Under the pieces are notes generated by a model, which was not told the DNA's origin, ran no database searches, and saw nothing but the letters and a program-made list of their open reading frames with translations. 20,000 nt of DNA, taken from the IMG/VR virus record IMGVR_UViG_3300028572_000010, positions 107,353 to 127,352 of that record; one strand, written 5' to 3'. The stretch comes from an uncultured virus (IMG/VR IMGVR_UViG_3300028572_000010). Its lineage: Duplodnaviria; Heunggongvirae; Uroviricota; Caudoviricetes. Both the position numbers and the translations under genes were made by a program. Shown piece after piece: positions 1,959-18,859 of this stretch (positions are counted from its first letter, which is position 1; each line of letters opens with the position of its first letter).

Positions 1959-2767
1959 ATTTTAGTATCATTAGTTGAAGTTGGATTAGTGATGAAACTT
2001 ATCTGACTAGTACTTGTGACTTTATCCAGGGCATCAATAGAACAAGTAAACATGGCAACAGTATCGACACAACGCTTTTGTAGGACATTGGAAGAAGCTA
2101 AACTATAAGCATATGCAATACCACTACTAGTTTGCTGATAATTCAAACTTTGCCCTGGAGCTACACTATATTGTGAACTTTCTTGAATTGCATCCTGATT
2201 AGCACCTAGATAGATAAACTGCCAATTAAGACTTTGTTTATCCGCTATCCTTCTAGACAGATCATCCTTCTTAAACTTAGTACTGCTATTTTCCGCCCCA
2301 TCAGTAATGACTAGAAAAATAATCCTACCAGGCCTGTCTTCTTCTTTAGTCACATTAATAAACTGTGTGCAATCATCAATAGCTTTACAAAATGCATCTA
2401 TTAATGGAGTTCCACCTACAGGACTTATCTCTTGAATAGGAGTGATGTCGTTAATATTAACTTTATCGAAATGAACTACATAATTGAAATTAACATCAAC
2501 AGGTTCTCCATGATTAGAATTATAGTTAGTAAACCAATTACTAGGATGACTAACACTACTAAAGAATACTACCGAAGTAGTACATTTAACATTATTACTA
2601 CTATCACTTAAATCTTCTGCAAAACTAAGATTTCTATCCTGGCTTGGCAATACCTTCTGTTGATTCAAGAAGTTATTTATGCCATCTACGGTAGCTTGTC
2701 TAGTATTAAACATGCTACCACTATTGTCTACTAATACTACGATATGTGTATAATTTGTATTACTCAT
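1955..2767 (-). CDS. von Willebrand factor A (vWA) domain protein
   Basis: MIDAS motif IVVLVDNSGSM, plus GGTPLIDA, IIFLVITDGAENSS and WQFIYLGANQDA, typical of stand-alone phage/bacterial vWA proteins. Confidence 0.9.
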   Translation of the reverse strand: MSNTNYTHIVVLVDNSGSMFNTRQATVDGINNFLNQQKVLPSQDRNLSFAEDLSDSSNNVKCTTSVVFFSSVSHPSNWFTNYNSNHGEPVDVNFNYVVHFDKVNINDITPIQEISPVGGTPLIDAFCKAIDDCTQFINVTKEEDRPGRIIFLVITDGAENSSTKFKKDDLSRRIADKQSLNWQFIYLGANQDAIQESSQYSVAPGQSLNYQQTSSGIAYAYSLASSNVLQKRCVDTVAMFTCSIDALDKVTSTSQISFITNPTSTNDTKI

Positions 2768-3135
2768 AAGTCTGGTTCTAAAAGTCTCTGGGCCGGGTCA
2801 AATTCTTCTCTTAAAGTTGATTCACGAACAATTTCTTGGGGTTCTAGGTTTATTTTATTTAAATAATTAGCGCAATGTATGCAACTTCTACAAGCATGAC
2901 AAGCATAACAATCTCTGCAATTACTACAATCATAACAATTAATACACGCAATACAATCATTACACCAACTACAACGACTACAATCTCTACAATCTCTACA
3001 CTCTCTACAATAACTACAATCTCTACAACTACTACAATTAGTTAGGGTAGGTGAGTATTGAGTAGCTTCTTCTTCAGTTATCCAACTATTATTGTTTTCA
3101 TCAAAGTATCTATTATTTCTTTTAATTATTGTCAT
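2764..3135 (-). CDS. Cysteine-repeat protein, copy B (19 Cxx units; C-terminal RLLEPDL)
   Basis: Same N-terminal domain as copy A, with 36 identical nt before the repeat. Confidence 0.85.
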   Translation of the reverse strand: MTIIKRNNRYFDENNNSWITEEEATQYSPTLTNCSSCRDCSYCRECRDCRDCSRCSWCNDCIACINCYDCSNCRDCYACHACRSCIHCANYLNKINLEPQEIVRESTLREEFDPAQRLLEPDL

Positions 3136-3659
3136 AGATTTGGATCTAAATTTCTATCTTCATCTGAATACATAGTTCTAGTAGTAGATTGCTCGTCTAC
3201 TGGTCTTACTGTAGGTCTTAGAGAGGCTGTATAATTTGTAGGATCTTCATTTAATGATGGAACAACACTTCTAGTATCAACTACAATTTCAGATCCTCTA
3301 ATTCCTTGTAGTACTCCTCCTACGCTAGCAGGAACTCCAACGACAGTATCTCTTCTCATAATATTGCTTACCTGCCTTATATATTCCATCTCTGTCCTTA
3401 AAGAATTAATCGAATTTGCTAATAATTCTATATTAGATCTTAGTTCACATACGTCTCTATAACGACTATCTAAATTACTTTTAAGTCCTTTTAATTCAGA
3501 CTGGGCCGAAAATTGATGAGTAGGTAAACTACATACTTCATTACTCTTACCTATGTAAATTATATGCTTACCTACATAAGTTATATCAGCGCCTTTAGTT
3601 TCAGGTTTAATACTGTTGAATAACCAATTAATGAATTTAGCTTTGAGTTTGTTTAACAT
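3132..3659 (-). CDS. Hypothetical protein with central coiled coil; C-terminal DRNLDPNL
   Basis: Heptad-like segment LKGLKSNLDSRYRDVCELRSNIELLANSINSLRTEM; overlaps the next gene. Confidence 0.75.
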   Translation of the reverse strand: MLNKLKAKFINWLFNSIKPETKGADITYVGKHIIYIGKSNEVCSLPTHQFSAQSELKGLKSNLDSRYRDVCELRSNIELLANSINSLRTEMEYIRQVSNIMRRDTVVGVPASVGGVLQGIRGSEIVVDTRSVVPSLNEDPTNYTASLRPTVRPVDEQSTTRTMYSDEDRNLDPNL

Positions 3660-3662
3660 AAA

Positions 3663-3836
3663 TTATGAATTTACCCCCAACCCTCCAGCCCCTTTAGATT
3701 TAAGCTTAATATTTGATATTTTAAGCCTAAGTTGTTGATTTATAAGCAGAGTATTGTCTGCTAATGAGTTAATTTTTATCGTATAAAATAGTAGAGCTGA
3801 ATCAAATAAGCCAATACTTAATATTTGATCCAGCAT
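3663..3836 (-). CDS. Small hypothetical protein (57 aa)
   Basis: Hand translation MLDQILSIGLFDSALLFYTIK...GAGGLGVNS* fills the gap exactly; below the ORF-track cutoff. Confidence 0.45.
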   Translation of the reverse strand: MLDQILSIGLFDSALLFYTIKINSLADNTLLINQQLRLKISNIKLKSKGAGGLGVNS

Positions 3837-4292: not shown

Positions 4293-4949
4293 ATGGCAAG
4301 TATTTTAAGCATACCTTATGACCCGGAAATCGTTGAAGTAAGCCCTGATGCTTCTGCTCCACCTAAAAGTTATATTGTTCCTAAATTCGATAATTTTGGT
4401 AAAAAGAAAGTAAATGGTGAAATGGTAGGTGGTAGTAAAGAAGCAGAGAAACTAAAAAGATTAATGTTAGATAGTATGCAGAATAGAGGTTCTTTGATGC
4501 CGGGGTTTGTAATGACTCCTACTGGCCCTATAAAAGCAGTACATGCTAAGCAGGAACCTTTAACTATTAAATTTACTAAGCAAGCAACTGAAGAAGTACA
4601 AAACTTAACCAAACCTAAAAAAGGTAAGAAAGCTAAACTACAAGAAATTGAATCATTACCTATTATGGAAGAAACTATGCCTACTAAAACAGAATACCCT
4701 GTCACTTTCATTATTGAGTCAGGTAAGATCAAGGGTATGATAGATGCAGTATTGGAAGATGAATTATTCCTGGCACTAGTATTTAATAATGAGGGATCAG
4801 TAACTTATGTACCAGAACAAGGCAGTCCATTAAAATTATTGTTACCTGATAAAAGACAATTAAATGTAGTTTTTTCAGGCTCTCAATTAGATTGGTACAA
4901 TACTAATCAACAAATATTATTATTCCTTAAACAGGAAAAAGTTAGCTAA
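4293..4949 (+). CDS. Hypothetical protein (218 aa), first gene of the virion block
   Basis: Long ORF with normal composition; Lys-rich linker and compact C-terminal domain. Confidence 0.8.
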   Translation: MASILSIPYDPEIVEVSPDASAPPKSYIVPKFDNFGKKKVNGEMVGGSKEAEKLKRLMLDSMQNRGSLMPGFVMTPTGPIKAVHAKQEPLTIKFTKQATEEVQNLTKPKKGKKAKLQEIESLPIMEETMPTKTEYPVTFIIESGKIKGMIDAVLEDELFLALVFNNEGSVTYVPEQGSPLKLLLPDKRQLNVVFSGSQLDWYNTNQQILLFLKQEKVS

Positions 4950-10407: not shown

Positions 10408-11058
10408 TTACTGGTTTTGTGTGTTTTGTGTGTGTTCCGTAGAATCATTAACTATCTGTTTAACCATCCGCTTCGCTAACTTTTTACCGGTAGGAAAATC
10501 TTCGAGAAGTGACCCGTAAAGCTGACCCCAGGCACTTTGCAAACCTTTCGTATGATTAAAAGGATCAAGAACAAAACATTTAGACTCTCCAGTATATACC
10601 TTACCAGTAACTGGATGTGTAAATGATACTTTGGTTGATCCGCCGTTAGGAAAAATATAATTAGTATGCCGGGCATAATTTTCAGCTATACCACCAGCAA
10701 TTTCATTCAGAACATCCAATTCTCGTCTTGCATGAAGTTGATGTACTGGTTGAAGTACATCCTGGCACATACGCTTAAACTTTGAAAGGGCATGGACATA
10801 TTGAGCTTTATTGGTTGCCCCCAATCTTCTCAATTTTTCCTTCCACACATTTGTCAATGATACACCATCCCAGTCACTAAACCGCTTTACTTCAACGTTT
10901 ACAGTGTAATTCAATTTTTCCAGAGTAGTACGAATTGTGGTTGGCTTTTCCAGATTCTCAAAAATGTCAGCCAGCACAATCACATTTGTATCTGTAACTT
11001 TGCCAAGCCATTTCCTTTTTGCTGGTTTCTTTTGTTTGTCTTCTACTTTTTCATTCAT
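10408..11058 (-). CDS. Hypothetical phage protein (216 aa)
   Basis: ATGA overlap; C-terminal GESKCFVLDPFNHTKGLQSA resembles the GxAxCxxxDxFxxxxGxxxA motif common in phage proteins. Confidence 0.8.
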   Translation of the reverse strand: MNEKVEDKQKKPAKRKWLGKVTDTNVIVLADIFENLEKPTTIRTTLEKLNYTVNVEVKRFSDWDGVSLTNVWKEKLRRLGATNKAQYVHALSKFKRMCQDVLQPVHQLHARRELDVLNEIAGGIAENYARHTNYIFPNGGSTKVSFTHPVTGKVYTGESKCFVLDPFNHTKGLQSAWGQLYGSLLEDFPTGKKLAKRMVKQIVNDSTEHTQNTQNQ

Positions 11059-12041
11059 AATTCATTTTGTTTGGTTGCTGCTATTGCTAGTTTTGTTGCT
11101 CCTTCTATTGTTTTTGCGGTTGCCAGGAATTGAGCAGAATGACAGAATATTGCCTCTTCTACTCCCGAAATTGCTTGAAGTTTTTGGTCAGTTAATCCTG
11201 CCCATTCTTTAGGAAATGGTATTCTAAGATTTTCCGGGCCATTACTTTGATTGCCATCCATTCTGACTGCTGTGACTACATGAGCAGTTTTTTCCTGGTT
11301 AGGAAATATTACATGGGTTATATGAGGATGGTCTTTTACCACATCATACCAAGTACAAAACTCCTCTAAGTATAAGAAAGGACTATGCTTGCTAATCCTA
11401 GCTTCGATATAAGGCTTGGCCAGAATCTCACTAGCCTTCTTTAAGATCAATCTAGTAAGCACAATACCAGCAGTACCAACCGCTAGTTTAAATGCATCAT
11501 CATCTAAATCATAGCCTACTAAAGGAATTGGATTAAAACTACTTATAATTGATTGAATTGTAGCTACTTCACAAATGAGTTCTGAATGACTACTATTTCT
11601 AGCTACAATGTTTAGTTGACCTTGGTCCTGCCAATCAATACTTTTGACGAAGTTATCAACTTTATCAACAACATCAAATTCTAAGTTGGAGTCATAAATC
11701 TTTAACTTCTGCATACAATCATAAAGAAGATAACTTACAACTTGCCAACCATGAGCTAACCAGACTAGACCAAATGAGCTATAGAGTGTCCCATCCTCCC
11801 TACAACTATTAAATCCAGGTTGGTGATGATCAAACTTACCATTAAGAGCATCATACTCACCCCCAACGTCTACCAAATAATCAGCACCTATCCAATCAAC
11901 AGGATCACGACTTCTTATTACCGTTACAGGGATCTCTTCAGAATAAAGTAGTTGAAGGGTGGCACAAGCAAATACTTCATCGGCGTGAAAAATTCCTGTA
12001 TGGGTCACTATAGTTATTTTTTCAGTTTTTGGCTCTTCCAT
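11055..12041 (-). CDS. MYG1 (UPF0160) family metal-dependent hydrolase / putative exonuclease
   Basis: IVTHTGIFHADEVFA, RSRD, VDVGGEYD....FDHHQ, YSSFGLVW, PKEWAGL and IFCH..F.A are MYG1 signature motifs. Confidence 0.92.
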   Translation of the reverse strand: MEEPKTEKITIVTHTGIFHADEVFACATLQLLYSEEIPVTVIRSRDPVDWIGADYLVDVGGEYDALNGKFDHHQPGFNSCREDGTLYSSFGLVWLAHGWQVVSYLLYDCMQKLKIYDSNLEFDVVDKVDNFVKSIDWQDQGQLNIVARNSSHSELICEVATIQSIISSFNPIPLVGYDLDDDAFKLAVGTAGIVLTRLILKKASEILAKPYIEARISKHSPFLYLEEFCTWYDVVKDHPHITHVIFPNQEKTAHVVTAVRMDGNQSNGPENLRIPFPKEWAGLTDQKLQAISGVEEAIFCHSAQFLATAKTIEGATKLAIAATKQNEL

Positions 12042-12044
12042 AAA

Positions 12045-12560
12045 TCAGATTTTGGTTTTGATAATGTGTTCAACCAGATTGATTAACTTCTTATACTGCT
12101 TACCAAACTTATTGTTTTTATGAGTCTTTTCTACTTTGTTTTTGAACTCAGTCAAATTTCCTGTAAAACAACCACAATCTACTTGAACATTCTTTCCTAC
12201 CCAATAAATGGTAGTTTGAGCGTTTCTAGAACCAATTTTAGAAGAAGTAAATCTTTGTGGGTTAGATTTGAAACCAATACAAGTAATACAACTTATACAA
12301 TCTCTACAATCTCTACAATAATTACAACTATTACAATCTCTACAATCATAGCAACCATTACAACCTTTACAATAAATACAATCATTGCAATATCTACAAT
12401 TACTACAATTATTACAACTACTACAATTATCACACCAACCACAATCAATACAACTAGTACAACCGGTTAGGGTAGGTGAGTATAGAGTAGCTAATTCTTC
12501 TGATAACCAGCTATTATTGTTTTCGTCATACCATCTATTATATCTTTTTGTTATTTTCAT
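12045..12560 (-). CDS. Cysteine-repeat protein, copy C (21 Cxx units) with a C-terminal IGSR...CGCF.G...EF...V..TH cap domain
   Basis: Start at 12560 (MKITKRYNRWYDENNNSW) aligns with the paralogs; 45 nt identical to copy A. The cap motif is one commonly found after beta-helix repeats in phage proteins. Confidence 0.85.
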   Translation of the reverse strand: MKITKRYNRWYDENNNSWLSEELATLYSPTLTGCTSCIDCGWCDNCSSCNNCSNCRYCNDCIYCKGCNGCYDCRDCNSCNYCRDCRDCISCITCIGFKSNPQRFTSSKIGSRNAQTTIYWVGKNVQVDCGCFTGNLTEFKNKVEKTHKNNKFGKQYKKLINLVEHIIKTKI

Positions 12561-12789
12561 AGTATTCAAAAGCTTCATCTAATTGTTTTAAAGCCTGGTC
12601 ACGTTTTGACCCTTCCTTATACTTGAGATTAATACCTTTATTACCAGTAAGTCCAATATACAACCATGCTTTAAGTAGATCTCTAGGTTGAGGTGATGGA
12701 CTATCAAACTCATTATATGCATAATAATTAGTTATAGCTGATAAAACTAACCTATGTCCATCTATAAATATAATTTTAGAATTTTTCAT
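12538..12789 (-). CDS. Hypothetical protein (83 aa)
   Basis: ORF directly downstream of tRNA-Cys, with an A/C-rich leader. Confidence 0.7.
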   Translation of the reverse strand: MKNSKIIFIDGHRLVLSAITNYYAYNEFDSPSPQPRDLLKAWLYIGLTGNKGINLKYKEGSKRDQALKQLDEAFEYYENNKKI

Positions 12790-12999: not shown

Positions 13000-13139
13000 C
13001 GGAGCCGTGGGCCGGATTTGAACCGACATCGGCCGAATTTACTTCGGTGCTCTTCTTATTGAGCTACTTTTTCAAAAGACATTAATTAGCTAGATTAACG
13101 CGCGCTCTAGCCAACAACGTACAGTTAATAATTCACGGC
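13000..13139 (-). ncRNA. tRNA-like element with a 66-nt insert in the acceptor stem and a 5-nt anticodon loop
   Basis: GCCGTG-[66 nt]-G-TA-GCTC-AATAAGAA-GAGC-A-CCGAA-GTAAA-TTCGG-CCGAT-GTCGG-TTCAAAT-CCGGC-CCACGGC-T-CCG. Confidence 0.7.
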
Positions 13140-13176: not shown

Positions 13177-13588
13177 TGGTGGACGTGGTTGGATTCTCAC
13201 CAACGTGTTTACTTCAAAACAATATGATTTCTACAAGCTTAGCCAGAATTTTAATACTAGAATAAGGAACTGACTCAACCTTAGCTATTCCAGTATTTTG
13301 TCCTTGTTAATTAGATTGTAATAGTACATAGACTAAACTATCACAACTCACTTATAGATTACGGTTCGTTAGTCCCATAAGTTTCAGACCAGGAACCGGT
13401 ATTGGTTAAACCAACACTTCATTGACGGAGGGAACGAACTCATCCGCTTGCGCAGAAATCGCCATCGCTTCATCAAGAATGCTCATTTTGTTAGCATTTA
13501 ACGTTTGCATTCATTTTTAGGTAGCCGAGAATGCTTCTACCGCTTGCTGTCATATCTTTCTAAAATAAGTCGATTATGTTACACGCCC
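13177..13588 (-). ncRNA. ssrA: tmRNA (one-piece, 412 nt)
   Basis: Acceptor GGGCGTG/CACGTCC with G3-U70, discriminator A and CCA; 5' TCGAC motif; TAAAT-GCT resume context; tag ANKMSILDEAMAISAQADEFVPSVNEVLV* at 13495-13406. Confidence 0.92.
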
Positions 13589-13742
13589 ATAAAGCATATA
13601 AGAAAATGTTACACTACTAAATTATAATATGCTAGTATAATTTAGTTAAAGAAGGATTTGATTCTATTAAAGAACTTATCCTTTATTTTTGTTATTCTCC
13701 TGATAATTGAATCAGGTTTTCGACTAAGGGGGCTTTATTATT

Positions 13743-13879
13743 TAGTGCAGGAGGTAGGATTCGAACCTACAAGACGAATCTAATATCTTCAATGCTACGT
13801 TCGTCGACGGAGACCGGCTACTGATTGAAGTCAGGTAAGCCTACTATCCGTTGCGTCTGCCAATTCCACCACTACCTGC
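13743..13879 (-). ncRNA. Enlarged tRNA-Leu-like RNA (137 nt) with extended anticodon and variable arms
   Basis: D region TGGTGGAATTGGCAGACGC is Leu-type; T arm GTAGG-TTCGAAT-CCTAC; acceptor GCAGG(T)AG/CTCCTGC, discriminator A, 3' CTA. ACGGA/TCCGT encloses 35 nt and GACGAA/TTCGTC encloses 21 nt. Confidence 0.75.
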
Positions 13880-14981: not shown

Positions 14982-16058
14982 TTAGTTTGAATTTACTGGG
15001 ATGATGGATTGTAGAATAATGACCTTAAAAAGCACCATCAATTGCTGCTTACTAATATTGTTACCTGTCAGATCAATTGTAACTGCTGAATGTGACGTTG
15101 CATCATCTACTAATGGCAACGTATCTTTATATTTTATCGTACCGGTCAATCCTGCAATCTTGGTATCAGTATCAAAGAAAGAGGATTCATCAGATGTTGA
15201 TACACTAAAAGCTGCATCAGGATTAGGTAGAGGTTCATTAACTCTGATATCGAAGTCATATTCACCCAAACCATTTGATTCTCGATTAGGATCAGGAACC
15301 CACCTAAAAATACCAGCAATTCGATCAATTTTCACACCACTTATATCATTGTATTGAGCAGTCAGATTATTAAGAAACCAACATTTCTTATCATAATCAT
15401 ATAACAGCTCACCATTGACAGTAACGGAATCATAATAACCTAACGGGCCTTGACCAATTATGACTTGATTAAACGACATCTTATCATACTTCTTTAGTTG
15501 TACTGTAGTTGTCTTACCATTAATACATCTGGTAATGTTAATCAGGCTTAGACTATCAGCCCAATTATCCGGTTTATTAGGTATCTTGCCAGCAGCAGTT
15601 CCTTTAAAGTAGCTAGTAAATCCTCCAGCTTGTCCCATTGGTAGAATATCAAATACTAGACTACCTGAATCATAGTTATATACCCCATTATCATTAATAG
15701 GTACAATACCATGTAATGATCCAATATTCTTGGTTTGAGCAGGATTATGTGGGTTAACTACATCACAATCAACGTTATAAGCCAATGCTCGATGTTGAGT
15801 CACAGCCTTGCTCACCCAACCACTAATGATTTGTGGAGTGTCTTGAATAGTACCGTGAAATAAGACACTATTGGCTACGTTGAAATTCAGATTATACACA
15901 TCCCTCACACCAGGTATGTTGGGTGAATTGAAGGTATTGAATTTAATGTCCATTGTCCCTTTAATGAATAAGGGTGAGGGAGGTGTTTGAGCCGATACTC
16001 CGAGCACAAAAAGAAGTGATAGGAGTAAGCTGTTGATTTTCCAAAGATGTGTGTTCAT
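14982..16058 (-). CDS. Secreted beta-rich protein (358 aa)
   Basis: Signal peptide ending GVSA|QT; beta-strand-like pattern throughout. Confidence 0.8.
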   Translation of the reverse strand: MNTHLWKINSLLLSLLFVLGVSAQTPPSPLFIKGTMDIKFNTFNSPNIPGVRDVYNLNFNVANSVLFHGTIQDTPQIISGWVSKAVTQHRALAYNVDCDVVNPHNPAQTKNIGSLHGIVPINDNGVYNYDSGSLVFDILPMGQAGGFTSYFKGTAAGKIPNKPDNWADSLSLINITRCINGKTTTVQLKKYDKMSFNQVIIGQGPLGYYDSVTVNGELLYDYDKKCWFLNNLTAQYNDISGVKIDRIAGIFRWVPDPNRESNGLGEYDFDIRVNEPLPNPDAAFSVSTSDESSFFDTDTKIAGLTGTIKYKDTLPLVDDATSHSAVTIDLTGNNISKQQLMVLFKVIILQSIIPVNSN

Positions 16059-16061
16059 GTA

Positions 16062-16196
16062 TTAGTTTTGTTGTTGGTTTTGGTCAGGCATAACAGCTTG
16101 ACTATCTTGTTGTTGTTGAGCACGGTTTAAGGCCAAAGCTACCAAAATCAAGATGACTATGATAACAATTGACCCCATCAGTTTATAGTGTTTCAT
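16062..16196 (-). CDS. Small single-pass membrane protein (44 aa)
   Basis: Hand translation MKHYKLMGSIVIIVILILVALALNRAQQQQDSQAVMPDQNQQQN*; ATGA overlap with the upstream stop; ends 3 nt before the next ATG. Confidence 0.65.
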   Translation of the reverse strand: MKHYKLMGSIVIIVILILVALALNRAQQQQDSQAVMPDQNQQQN

Positions 16197-16984: not shown

Positions 16985-17016
16985 TATTTGTTTTGTTTTG
17001 GCTGTTGTTCAAAGGA

Positions 17017-17049
17017 GGGAGTGGACCCTTAGCACGGTATCCACTCCCC
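17017..17049 (-). terminator. GC-rich hairpin downstream of the permuted tRNA-like RNA
   Basis: Minus strand GGGAGTGGAT...GTCCACTCCC followed by TCCTTT; terminator or processing stem. Confidence 0.5.
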
Positions 17050-17071
17050 ATAATTATATTTCAGATATAAC

Positions 17072-17245
17072 GTCTAGGCTAATCAACTTATTAATCACAA
17101 TGCAACAAATGTTTAACTTAATCATAACGCTCTACCGCTAAGCTACCGGGCAATTCTGTGAAGTGGAATAAAATGGCTGCCCAGCTCGGATTTGAACCGA
17201 GGTCTTTACTTTAGTACATCTGTTATTGTAATTAACTACCTAAAC
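17072..17245 (-). ncRNA. Circularly permuted tRNA-like RNA (YrlA/Y-RNA-like architecture)
   Basis: 5' to 3': T arm CTCGG-TTCAAAT-CCGAG, 3' acceptor strand CTGGGCA-G-CCA, 21-nt linker, 5' acceptor strand TGCCCGG, D arm TA-GCTT-AGCGGTA-GAGC. The flanks pair into a long stem in place of the anticodon arm. Confidence 0.85.
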
Positions 17246-17268
17246 TAATTTTGAACTTAGGGTGAAAA

Positions 17269-17310
17269 CTTGAGCTTCAACCTTATCTTTAACTTTAACT
17301 TGAGCTTGAG
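17269..17310 (-). repeat. Seven tandem hexamers, consensus YTNAAG
   Basis: CTCAAG CTCAAG TTAAAG TTAAAG ATAAGG TTGAAG CTCAAG. Confidence 0.8.
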
Positions 17311-17357
17311 TTGCAGAGCATAGTATATCTATGTCTCTGCTCACCCAAATTGTTTGA

Positions 17358-18101
17358 TCACTTACCAAGGATGTATTTGACTATGTCCTGGCCGATTTTC
17401 TCGCCCACAACATCAATATTGTTGGCGCGTGCTTGTGCTGACTTGATAGCGGCCACCAAGTCCTCACAACGAGACAAAAGATCACTTTTTTCAGCTGGTG
17501 TGAGCATGCCAGACCACTCCGTTTCATGCTTATAACCTATTATCACATCCCTTACTTCTTTCGTAGCCTGGGCCGGATGTTGAGCTGTGGCAGGAACCAG
17601 TACGAAAGGATAGAACTCCTTGGTAGTCCTGGAAGTGACCCGAGGTTCAGCTTTATAAACATCTTCACCTTGATCATGGTCAGGCTTGAAGTTTTTGACT
17701 GGATCAAGAGTTGGGATCTTTTCGAGCAGACTTTTGAAGGTCTGAATATGCTTTTCAAGTTCCAGCAGACCAGTAGCCGGAATGTCCTTGAGTAGAACTG
17801 TACCATCCACAATTACATCTGCCTTAGCCAGACAATTTGTGGAATTGATTCGATTACAGACATCCAGAACATTAGCAAAATCATTGCCGATCCAGCTCAG
17901 TTCTTTCCGTACTGTAGTTTGCCGCTTCACGTTCTTCTCCACCACATCCTGTTGATTTTCGCCCAAAGGTTTGAATATAACATGTTCTTCAACAAAGTGA
18001 AGGTGCTTCTTAGTGAAGAGTTCAGTCAAGTCACTGATTAGCTTTGTGAGCTTACCAACGACACCTGACTTTACTGCCAGGATTTCATGTAGTTTAGCCA
18101 T
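17358..18101 (-). CDS. Conserved coiled-coil protein of the MAKLNQIIAVEKG-type family (DUF7873 as recalled; unverified)
   Basis: MAKLHEILAV, N..AKADVIVDG.VLL.DIPAT.LL.LEK, ATAQHPAQ, WSG and A.KSAQARAN..V motifs match this bacterial/phage family from recall. Confidence 0.8.
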   Translation of the reverse strand: MAKLHEILAVKSGVVGKLTKLISDLTELFTKKHLHFVEEHVIFKPLGENQQDVVEKNVKRQTTVRKELSWIGNDFANVLDVCNRINSTNCLAKADVIVDGTVLLKDIPATGLLELEKHIQTFKSLLEKIPTLDPVKNFKPDHDQGEDVYKAEPRVTSRTTKEFYPFVLVPATAQHPAQATKEVRDVIIGYKHETEWSGMLTPAEKSDLLSRCEDLVAAIKSAQARANNIDVVGEKIGQDIVKYILGK

Positions 18102-18148
18102 AATTAGTTTGAGTTTAATGTTTAGTTTGAGTTTTAGCTTAGTGTTAG
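18102..18148 (-). repeat. Hexamer-periodic leader directly abutting the ATG
   Basis: CTAACA CTAAG CTAAAA CTCAAA CTAAAC ATTAAA CTCAAA CTAATT ATG. Confidence 0.7.
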
Positions 18149-18149
18149 T

Positions 18150-18317
18150 TCAGGAATATACTTCCCGTTCTTCGTTTCTTTTTGTTTCACCAGTTCCTTT
18201 ACAGACTGGACATTTTTGCTTGTTTCTTTTGTTGGTTACGTGATGCTTGCCAACAATCCCTCTCCCACCACAATTAAGGCAGGTGGTTGGTACTTCGACT
18301 AGTTTTGTGTGTTTCAT
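18150..18317 (-). CDS. Small DnaJ-type zinc-finger protein (55 aa)
   Basis: Hand translation contains CLNCGGRG and CPVCKGTG (two CxxCxGxG motifs); not in ORF track. Confidence 0.8.
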   Translation of the reverse strand: MKHTKLVEVPTTCLNCGGRGIVGKHHVTNKRNKQKCPVCKGTGETKRNEEREVYS

Positions 18318-18463: not shown

Positions 18464-18859
18464 TTAGTGTTTTGTTAAATAGTTTACTAACATAAGTATC
18501 AAGGTTCCTCCAAGCAATACAAGAAATAGTTTTAAAACGAAATAAGGATATTTATTTCGGTCCTGTATAGAATTGACGTTATGATGATAATCTTTACGAT
18601 CTCTACAATATGTACAACCACTACAATTATTACAATCACTACAATGACCACAATAACTACAATCAATACAACTACTACAATTACTACAATAAGCACAACT
18701 ACTACAACTACTACACCATCTACAATAACTACAACTACTACAATCACTACAACATCTACAATTAGTTAGGGTAGGTGAGTGTAGAGTAGCTAGTTCTTCC
18801 GTATCCCAACTATTATCGTTTTTGTCATACCATCTATTACCTCTTTTTGTTAGTTTCAT
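18464..18859 (-). CDS. Cysteine-repeat protein, copy D (18 Cxx units) with a C-terminal TM helix
   Basis: Same N-terminal domain; tail YFVLKLFLVLLGGTLILMLVNYL is hydrophobic. Confidence 0.85.
   Translation of the reverse strand: MKLTKRGNRWYDKNDNSWDTEELATLHSPTLTNCRCCSDCSSCSYCRWCSSCSSCAYCSNCSSCIDCSYCGHCSDCNNCSGCTYCRDRKDYHHNVNSIQDRNKYPYFVLKLFLVLLGGTLILMLVNYLTKH

Follow-up and report, generated by a model that had tools for sequence, protein, structure and literature searches.

The window examined here is a stretch of 20,000 nucleotides (nt) from an uncultured virus of the Caudoviricetes (IMG/VR record IMGVR_UViG_3300028572_000010, positions 107,353 to 127,352). Its minus strand carries a gene of the DUF7873 family, behind which lies a structured RNA with a circularly permuted, tRNA-like head. 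We lean towards the view that the DUF7873 gene belongs, together with the ~340 nt that follow it, to a single conserved phage module, comprising a protein gene and a co-transcribed structured non-coding RNA that would act together as a ribonucleoprotein (RNP). The tRNA-mimic RNA is a candidate new variant, with a candidate new protein partner.

A sequence-only reading of this locus had described a coiled-coil gene bracketed by arrays of hexamers and followed by a permuted tRNA-like RNA. All the features that it named are present on the minus strand at the positions it assigned. The likeness of the head to YrlA RNA, the helix (P1) that closes the loop holding the downstream array, and the long rod that bears the head lay beyond that reading. 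Coordinates below are those of the window, and the features listed lie on its minus strand.

Structure of the RNA

The RNA is predicted to fold as two domains. In the first, the P1 helix would close a loop holding a hairpin and ~50 nt of mostly single-stranded 6-nt repeat (YTCARG-like). The second would be a long rod carrying the circularly permuted tRNA-like head with an encoded NCCA, in the design of a YrlA-type Y RNA. A 348-nt stretch folds with a free energy of −103.5 kcal/mol (z = −5.3).

The head occupies 17124–17209. Starting at its 5′ side the RNA forms one strand of a 4-bp stub (17209–17206 with 17127–17124) that occupies the place of the anticodon stem, and then the T-arm CTCGG-TTCAAAT-CCGAG (17201–17185). 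The strand continues directly as the acceptor 3′ strand CTGGGCA (17184–17178), the discriminator G17177 and an encoded CCA (17176–17174). After a 21-nt linker (17173–17153) it forms the acceptor 5′ strand TGCCCGG (17152–17146), which makes 7 bp with the acceptor 3′ strand, and from there the D-arm GCTT-AGCGGTA-GAGC (17143–17129) before returning to the stub. The element departs from a canonical tRNA in its permuted order and in having a rod in place of the anticodon arm, and ARAGORN run over the window makes no call at this position. The sole Rfam family to match it is YrlA, at 32.0 bits (E = 0.0016), where 69 is the gathering threshold. With R1, a covariance model made from 19 heads of this class, the window head scores 89.8 bits.

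The pairing within the head is supported by covariation. The two acceptor strands are complementary at 7 of 7 positions in all 19 heads, although the sequences are unrelated. In an alignment of 18 heads 95.0% of the cells are paired and both sides have changed in 19 of the 20 pairs; none of 500 shuffles gave a value as high, and partners slid out of register gave 34–49%. Nine heads outside the training set, in an alignment fitted to the model, again show 95.0% pairing with changes on both sides in 19 of 20 pairs. Fourteen of the 19 heads encode CCA or a near variant. No single aminoacylation identity is retained, since both the acceptor sequences and the discriminator vary between loci.

The rod is formed by the regions flanking the head. 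Its 5′ strand (17216–17245) pairs with 17112–17072 in the minimum-free-energy fold (duplex z = −4.0), and the 3′ strand (17072–17112) contains two more TGATTA repeats. The rod duplex has a z-score of −1.5 or below in 20 of 28 heads (30 shuffles each). Between the 3′ strand and the stub lies the internal-loop motif GAUUAAGUUAA (17113–17123), which is GATTA(A/G)G-like in most homologs, with a consensus of ATTAAG as judged by eye with no statistical test. Beyond the rod the RNA could end in 17011–17070, where a small AU hairpin (17070–17054) is followed by a GC hairpin (17049–17017) and the short U tract UCCUUUG. The GC hairpin is present in the minimum-free-energy fold, and the sequence suggests a weak terminator; a terminator scan did not call it and RNA contigs cross it.

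Association of the RNA with the DUF7873 gene

Loci were collected with a 12-sequence alignment of the protein (A2), used in place of a first alignment (A1) that was too diverse to find them. The distant viral set consists of four identical copies and 17 distant loci (29–44% protein identity), one of which is a duplicate. Rfam YrlA matches below threshold lie just downstream of the gene, on the same strand, in 10 of the 17. On the same strand as the DUF7873 gene, 43–575 nt past its stop codon, a head is found in 16 of 16 distinct distant loci; all of these were used in building R1, and the heads there were recognised by reading the sequence. Two or three heads are present at some loci, with two in L020 and L022.

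R1 was then run on loci outside the training set. Of nine cultured-phage representatives, seven have a head following the gene, with a best score in each of 43.5–61.9 bits; these are Rhizobium phage TM30, Vibrio phage D520, Arthrobacter phage Racecar, Ralstonia phage phiRSL1, Gordonia phages Ronaldo and GodonK, and Klebsiella phage FBKp24, some of which have second R1 heads. Among metagenome loci, a few of which repeat loci of the viral contigs, R1 finds a head in 66 of 77 at a score of at least 57.5 bits. Six of the 11 misses have at most 206 nt of downstream sequence, leaving 66 heads in 71 evaluable loci. An uncharacterised module of a gene and a non-coding RNA, as envisaged by the sequence-only reading, is thus upheld in all three sets. 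No other neighbour recurs to this extent: in 97 of 133 flanking open reading frames (ORFs) scanned from 16 loci, no Pfam family was present in more than two loci.

In the cultured phages the DUF7873 gene typically lies within a tRNA array, with an unannotated gap of 170–490 nt after it. Among the matches listed in the GenBank phage records the RNA is unannotated, except in one case in which it overlaps a suppressor-tRNA call. This is in Klebsiella phage vB_KpM_FBKp24, where a feature labelled 'tRNA-OTHER / tRNA-Sup-TTA' (L030 4518–4597) overlaps the R1 head match at 4558–4666; part of the tRNA mimic has probably been mistaken there for a tRNA. In Microcoleus (L034) there is a possible divergent head with a linker insertion of ~95 nt, seen by eye only and not counted.

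Junctions between adjacent tRNA genes can mimic the order of T-arm followed by D-arm and so yield weak YrlA or R1 matches, a caveat that is also raised in the text of PMC4201824. The features might on this basis be due to chance, or be the debris of tRNA-gene rearrangement or of an integration site. The 7/7 acceptor complementarity in all 19 heads despite their differing sequences stands against this, most tRNA–tRNA junctions score 31 bits or less with R1, and the covariation (in the 18 heads and in the nine independent heads) together with the conserved position behind one gene family already refutes it. We therefore assign it next to no probability.

The P1 helix and the hexamer array

The region between the stop codon and the head is itself conserved in homologs. 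It comprises a TTCGGGT-like segment a few nt after the stop, a variable hairpin, ~47–54 nt of periodic sequence and a TTACCCGAAGGCT-like segment; in two-headed loci the position of the variable hairpin is taken by the second head. In the window the 5′ strand of P1 (AAUUUGGGUGA, 17341–17351) begins 7 nt past the stop codon, and the 3′ strand (UCACCCUAAGUU, 17254–17265) corresponds to the TTACCCGAAGGCT-type segments of the homologs. In the minimum-free-energy fold the two form a helix of 11 bp with one bulge. Within the loop closed by P1 is a hairpin (17313–17340) in which GCAGAG and CTCTGC form 6 bp closing a 16-nt loop, and then the array.

The array (17269–17310) is part of a ~47-nt stretch between the hairpin and the P1 3′ strand. 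Its seven hexamers are CTCAAG (twice), TTAAAG (twice), ATAAGG, TTGAAG and a further CTCAAG, in which T2, A4 and G6 are invariant. The period-6 self-identity is 0.75, and none of 5000 dinucleotide shuffles was as high. Just three clusters in the 127-kb record reach a period-6 identity of at least 0.72, and this array is the only one outside coding repeats. The sequence-only reading had held that the arrays have no pairing partner nearby. They are not entirely without one, since a few AGCU-containing units are weakly paired in the fold; the repeat stretch in the P1 loop is mostly single-stranded.

The period is general among homologs. In 14 arrays anchored by hand, each taken as the 50 nt that precede the 3′ strand of P1, period 6 was the best of periods 3–12 in 12, and had P < 0.05 against dinucleotide shuffles in 12. 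In an automatic test on 54 distinct stop-to-head spacers (12 of 66 having been dropped as duplicates or as lying outside 60–330 nt) period 6 was best in 40 and had P < 0.05 in 35. Both the array and the tRNA mimic are thus conserved at homologous loci. When windows were ranked by period 6 across whole 5.7-kb loci the result was unconvincing for most homologs (median rank ~51 of 5,700 windows), because coding regions contribute period-3 and period-6 signal; the shuffle tests on spacers were used instead. The array of Ralstonia phage phiRSL1 (L029 4298–4395) reads AGCGTT AGCGTA GTCGTT AGCGTT, in which the period is kept and the word has changed.

Pairing of the P1 strands was compared in a manner that is free of alignment. 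Cognate strands pair with a mean of −11.6 kcal/mol versus −8.9 kcal/mol for non-cognate strands (permutation P = 5e-5).

Several known kinds of site were considered for the array and rejected by eye. The window units have no GG, as a Shine–Dalgarno-like ribosome sponge would require; GGA, expected of CsrA sites, is rare; and the ARN tracts bound by Hfq fit alternate triplets only. A scan for promoters found nothing promoter-like between the stop codon and 17339. A Bacteroidota-type −7 box at the TTCGGG segment was likewise rejected by eye, since that segment and its partner co-vary among phages whose hosts are unrelated.

Further ORFs occur between gene and RNA at some loci. In L013 there is a Cys-rich ORF of ~130 amino acids (aa) at 3290–3691, with a similar ORF after the gene in L100, and L017 has a different, small basic ORF in this position.

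The DUF7873 protein

The gene (17358–18101) encodes 247 aa, of which residues 1–245 match Pfam PF25283 (E = 7.6e-63). The match scores 212.9 bits against a curated cut-off of 27 and covers profile positions 1–242 of 244, so this is a full-length family member. No other family matches it in Pfam, NCBIfam or PHROGs. An AlphaFold2 model based upon a 39-sequence alignment has a predicted local distance difference test (pLDDT) score of 90.3 and a predicted template modelling (pTM) score of 0.75. It comprises five long helices and three β-hairpins, one of which has strands of 16–20 residues; the earlier description as a coiled-coil protein is therefore inaccurate, being right only in part.

The family is large. 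A word-index search returned 94 clusters and a full profile search 2,615 representative clusters at E ≤ 0.001, with lengths of 244–275 aa among the best 150 of the 2,615. Eighty-eight GenBank phage records carry DUF7873, with named hosts that include Vibrio, Klebsiella, Rhizobium, Gordonia, Arthrobacter, Ralstonia, Rhodococcus and Prevotella, and among the matches listed every annotated gene is labelled hypothetical. A search of the ESM Atlas returned DUF7873 clusters only, one of them mostly bacterial (Actinomycetota); a pattern scan of cellular genomes found no confirmed relative. No longer or fused forms were found, which is weak evidence. No paper on DUF7873 was found in the full-text literature, in a search whose coverage did not extend to subscription journals.

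Structural searches gave no relative. The AlphaFold2 model has no matches at E ≤ 0.001 in the PDB by Foldseek, nor in BFVD. The best Z in a wide VIA-align search, 9.2, was to designed helical bundles and does not rise above the helical background, and the best E in a PDB profile search was 0.72. No likeness to TRAP or Sm proteins in sequence or fold was found by Pfam, Foldseek or VIA-align.

Some 25 polar residues are invariant or nearly so in alignments of 12–39 sequences. This would fit a DUF7873 protein that is an enzyme acting on tRNAs or on the present RNA (in repair, modification or cleavage) and not a stoichiometric binder, with the RNA alone serving as a decoy against host tRNA-targeting nucleases. 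The gene lies inside the tRNA arrays of Rhizobium phage TM30, Arthrobacter phage Racecar, Gordonia phage GodonK and other phages, and there are sporadic neighbours of RNA-repair type (Thg1, Macro, NUDIX, metallophosphatase and MYG1). However, no catalytic family or fold was detected, and a periodic array of conserved length suggests a repeated binding surface. We regard the enzymatic interpretation as quite unlikely.

RNA from the locus

Twelve peat metatranscriptome runs contain part of the stretch, four of which were mapped as assembled contigs. Depth (as word depth) is concentrated on the 5′ part of the RNA. In run X2 a contig spanning 17180–17337 has a depth of 240, and in X3 a contig spanning 17177–17339 has a depth of 519, compared with 7–24 for flanking contigs in these two runs. 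A contig in X1 of depth 137 stops at 17339 right against an Illumina adapter; in all, the contigs of three runs stop at 17337–17339. The stops correspond to the first bases of the hairpin, 2 nt past the P1 5′ strand, and to the discriminator base before CCA. There is a hint here of a processed, abundant RNA of ~163 nt (17339 to ~17177), far above the flanking mRNA. Such an RNA would span the hairpin, the array, the P1 3′ strand, the rod 5′ strand, the T-arm and the acceptor 3′ strand. There is no contig cover at 17340–17640 in the four runs, nor at 17143–17176 in X2 and X3; a gap alone proves nothing.

MALAT1 and its mascRNA provide a precedent for processing of a 3′ end by a tRNA-like structure. 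By analogy the head could be a processing cassette and nothing else, in which RNase P or RNase Z sets the 3′ end of a stable small RNA with the repeats, or of the mRNA, and in which the head plays no part as a tRNA mimic once the RNA is mature. The abundant contigs end at 17177–17180, the 3′ end of the acceptor; in X2 and X3 there is little or no cover of the linker and the 3′ half; and the encoded CCA of most heads would fit as well. Yet the conserved rod, stub and GATTARG loop are not needed by a processing signal, nor are two or three heads at one locus, and several linkers are closed hairpins by eye and not open loops. Contig depth is moreover a poor measure of RNA level. We consider a cassette without a further role unlikely.

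The 5′ leader of the gene

The 47 nt immediately upstream of the ATG (18102–18148) are filled entirely by eight units of ~6 nt (CTNAAN). These are CTAACA CTAAG CTAAAA CTCAAA CTAAAC ATTAAA CTCAAA CTAATT, one unit being of 5 nt; every unit has T as its second and A as its fourth letter. Self-identity at period 6 is 0.61, for which dinucleotide shuffles give P = 0.0006, or P = 0.01 when all periods of 3–12 are allowed.

The sequence-only reading had proposed that the protein represses its own translation through this array, and had named likeness to generic A/C-rich leaders as a point that would count against the idea. In composition that likeness is present: free-standing genes of the window phage have A/C-rich, G-poor leaders without a Shine–Dalgarno sequence, and the make-up of the array (A 51%, C 23%, T 23%, G 2%) is the same as that of five other leaders, whose period-6 identity is only 0.37–0.49. 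Nor is the period common to the leaders of homologs, where period 6 is best in 3 of 24 and has P < 0.05 in 5 of 24 (the window included); in a larger set the corresponding figures are 14 of 57 and 8 of 57. Most homologs have ordinary AGGAG-type leaders, and TCA-type hexamers stand beside the start codon in a minority (L016, L017, L037, L060, L068 and L096). The downstream array of the Vibrio phage shares AAACTAAAACTCAAACTAAA words with the window leader. The idea of autoregulation is thus weakened; judged from leader sequences, it is possible in some phages and is not a conserved property of the module.

Occurrences of A[AC]T[CT]A[AG] were also counted; their density per kb is 7.6 for leaders, 5.7 for the 5′ domain of the RNA and 2.2 for the background. 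The count was given no weight since the pattern was derived from the window itself.

Relationship to Ro60

YrlA RNAs are described in the text of PMC4201824 as shown to mimic tRNA, and the published search for them, as described in the part of that paper used here, was confined to the surroundings of Ro60 (TROVE) genes. Phage Ro60–Y RNA pairs have been reported for mycobacteriophages, CcrColossus, Bacillus phage G, and Thermus phage phiLo with Yrl1/Yrl2 (PMC4201824, PMC12135203, as described in the portions used). Supplemental Table S2 of PMC4201824, which covers phage YrlA RNAs, might include members of the present class. Titles and opening lines of abstracts on YrlA or Y RNA in phages and on permuted phage tRNA, outside subscription journals, gave only Ro60-linked Y RNAs and unrelated work.

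The RNA could on this precedent be an ordinary YrlA-type Y RNA that acts with phage or host Ro60 and an exonuclease such as PNPase, DUF7873 being an accessory or operon-mate. The head has the topology of YrlA, which is its sole Rfam match. A TROVE gene above the Pfam cut-off is present in 4 of 24 related records (G002, G003, G004 and Rhizobium phage TM30), with a weak distant match in G001. No TROVE gene was found in the 127-kb record; this record is only 58% complete, and its end lies 1.9 kb upstream of the DUF7873 gene.

Other evidence speaks against Ro60 as the partner. No TROVE gene is present in module-bearing genomes that are complete or nearly so (G010, G014, G005, phiRSL1, FBKp24, Ronaldo, Racecar, D520 and GodonK), from which we conclude that the module does not depend on a phage Ro60, though host Ro60 may play a part; the constant neighbour is DUF7873 and not TROVE. 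The homologous elements score 24.2–38.4 bits with Rfam YrlA (RF02553), below the gathering score of 69 bits. The Ro60-binding module is given as GNCGAAN0-1G on the 5′ strand of the stem (PMC4201824, in the section consulted). The motif is absent from the window RNA, which has no CGAA at all, and is present in only 4 of 24 homologous RNAs, in two of which it lies outside the rod. An ordinary Ro60-bound Y RNA is in our estimation improbable.

Genomic setting

The window makes up the final 20 kb of a record of 127,352 nt that is rated 58% complete, and so is a fragment of a phage of roughly 220 kb. An identical DUF7873 gene is also present on a 218-kb metagenome contig (L045). The window record and two contigs of the same phage (L003 and L005) all stop ~1,890–1,900 nt upstream of the DUF7873 start codon, which may mark a physical genome end or a repeat that breaks assembly.

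The region is rich in RNA, with a transfer-messenger RNA (tmRNA), a tRNA-Cys and two other tRNA-like stretches, together with a MYG1-type exonuclease. The tmRNA is of the one-piece type (13177–13588; Rfam 78.1 bits against a gathering score of 47) and was not reported by ARAGORN. A tRNA-like stretch at 13010–13067 (28.9 bits against a gathering score of 29) has a D-arm, an anticodon-like arm and a T-arm; a paired acceptor stem is absent by eye. Just upstream of the tmRNA lies a stretch of ~127 nt (~13750–13876) that has a T-arm (GTAGGTTCGAATCCTAC) and ends resembling those of a tRNA; it may be a tRNA interrupted by a long insertion. ARAGORN makes no call there, and R1 gives a 26-bit match at 13674–13782.

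The MYG1-type exonuclease homolog (PF03690, E = 9.5e-55) is encoded at 11055–12041. Four paralogous Cys-rich repeat proteins (phrog_15341) are encoded at 1247–1699, 2764–3135, 12045–12578 and 18464–18859, and their coding repeats are the source of most other period-6 signals in the genome. Directly upstream of the module, an ORF of 55 aa (18150–18317) encodes a zinc ribbon of the CXXCXGXG type (DnaJ_CXXCXGXG, E = 8.8e-6, under the Pfam cut-off), which is not a conserved neighbour of the DUF7873 gene. An RNA contig of run X1 extends past 18318, just ahead of the ATG of this ORF, and the first 30 nt of the extension are identical to the reverse complement of the leader (16061–16090) of the gene at 14982–16058. 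The extension could reflect a variant genome, a leader swap or an assembly chimera.

DISCUSSION

The conserved module that we favour could be elaborated into a mechanism. DUF7873, perhaps as an oligomer, would bind the repeat loop. RNase P, with 3′ trimming or RNase Z, would cut the acceptor linker, by analogy with the processing published for Mycobacterium smegmatis YrlA (Chen et al. 2014, PMC4201824). The resulting RNP would offer its anticodon-less, tRNA-shaped head to factors that handle tRNA, as a decoy or a tether in the tRNA programme of the phage. These could be enzymes of processing, repair or decay, or anti-phage nucleases that target tRNA. In most phages the module would operate without a phage Ro60. 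In its fullest form the proposal is of a Ro60-independent RNP, widespread in tailed phages and typically located in tRNA arrays, in which an oligomer of new fold wraps the ~50-nt repeat loop while the CCA-bearing head, cut by host tRNA-processing enzymes, engages or diverts the tRNA machinery, with autocontrol through the leader in some phages. We advance this complete scheme tentatively, and with appreciably less confidence than the module itself.

A number of observations weigh against the module or its elaboration. The R1 score alone does not fully separate heads from tRNA–tRNA junctions, since a 40.5-bit match in L021 (3921–4011) is junction-like by eye. With the filters off, R1 gave no match in L055, L098 and L101 (which have the same sequence), L100 or L113, each with at least 357 nt downstream; the heads of L100 and Microcoleus are uncertain, and Lak-A1 has none behind the gene, so that the module is not universal. 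In all four phages that have a phage Ro60, TROVE lies 1.5–6 kb from DUF7873. DUF7873 has no recognisable RNA-binding fold and no known fold relative in the four structural searches, an absence that is weak evidence.

Other such points concern the 5′ domain and the contigs. On a MAFFT alignment, in which L012 and L014 are off by one column, P1 shows no covariation, with 77.4% of cells paired versus 75.3% in shuffles and 94 of 500 shuffles as high. P values combined by Fisher's method treat the tested loci as independent and overstate that independence, since the loci are related. Assembled contigs cannot prove the ends, strand or level of an RNA. As they stand, the abundant piece starts 2 nt past the P1 5′ strand, so the mature RNA may lack P1, and the 3′ half of the head is present only in contigs of depth 7–9, so a stable RNA in two pieces is unsupported.

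Comparison with known systems

Ring proteins such as TRAP and Hfq read short periodic motifs, TRAP binding RNA with (G/U)AG repeats. The array resembles a TRAP target in having seven to nine ARG-type triplets with 3-nt spacers in ~50 nt of single strand. The protein differs, as DUF7873 has no match to the TRAP family, and the sole Anti-TRAP match is the unrelated zinc ribbon upstream, under the cut-off.

In the two-piece (permuted) tmRNA the gene order is also permuted, so that the acceptor 3′ strand and CCA precede the acceptor 5′ strand and the intervening segment is processed. The present head has the same permuted acceptor order, and processing would be expected in the intervening segment. 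It differs from tmRNA in that neither Rfam nor ARAGORN makes a tmRNA match at the element and no tag-like frame is seen by eye. The third acceptor pair is C:G in the window, in place of the G3:U70 of alanine identity, and varies among loci. The phage has in addition a separate one-piece tmRNA.

The published phage Ro60–Y RNA pairs share with the present module the placing of a small structured RNA beside the gene of its protein partner. Here the candidate partner is the 247-aa DUF7873, without HEAT or vWA domains. The Yrl RNAs of phiLo were recognised by CGAA motifs upstream of Ro60 (PMC12135203, in the part consulted), and such motifs are lacking here.

The closest likeness is to YrlA (Y RNA-like A, RF02553), especially that of M. 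smegmatis. Both have a rod formed from the two ends of the RNA, topped by a T-arm, a closed acceptor stem and a D-arm. M. smegmatis YrlA has a 7-bp acceptor stem, is cleaved by RNase P and has CCA added in vivo (PMC4201824, in the text used here); the acceptor stem here is also of 7 bp, and CCA is encoded. The window RNA differs in lying below the family threshold and in having no Ro60-binding motif, and most carrier genomes have no Ro60 gene. It has in addition a conserved 5′ domain, made up of P1 with the hexamer loop, and DUF7873 as a constant neighbour. The parts of the cited papers drawn on here mention neither for Y RNAs.

Several of the carriers are cultured phages of harmless hosts, so that both a tRNA-mimic role without Ro60 and a protein reading RNA of 6-nt period are directly testable. 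Mimics of the Y RNA type in bacteria and phages have so far been sought beside Ro60 genes, as the relevant part of PMC4201824 describes. In the present module a YrlA-like head goes with another protein family, itself uncharacterised, and with an additional repeat domain, for the most part in phages without Ro60.

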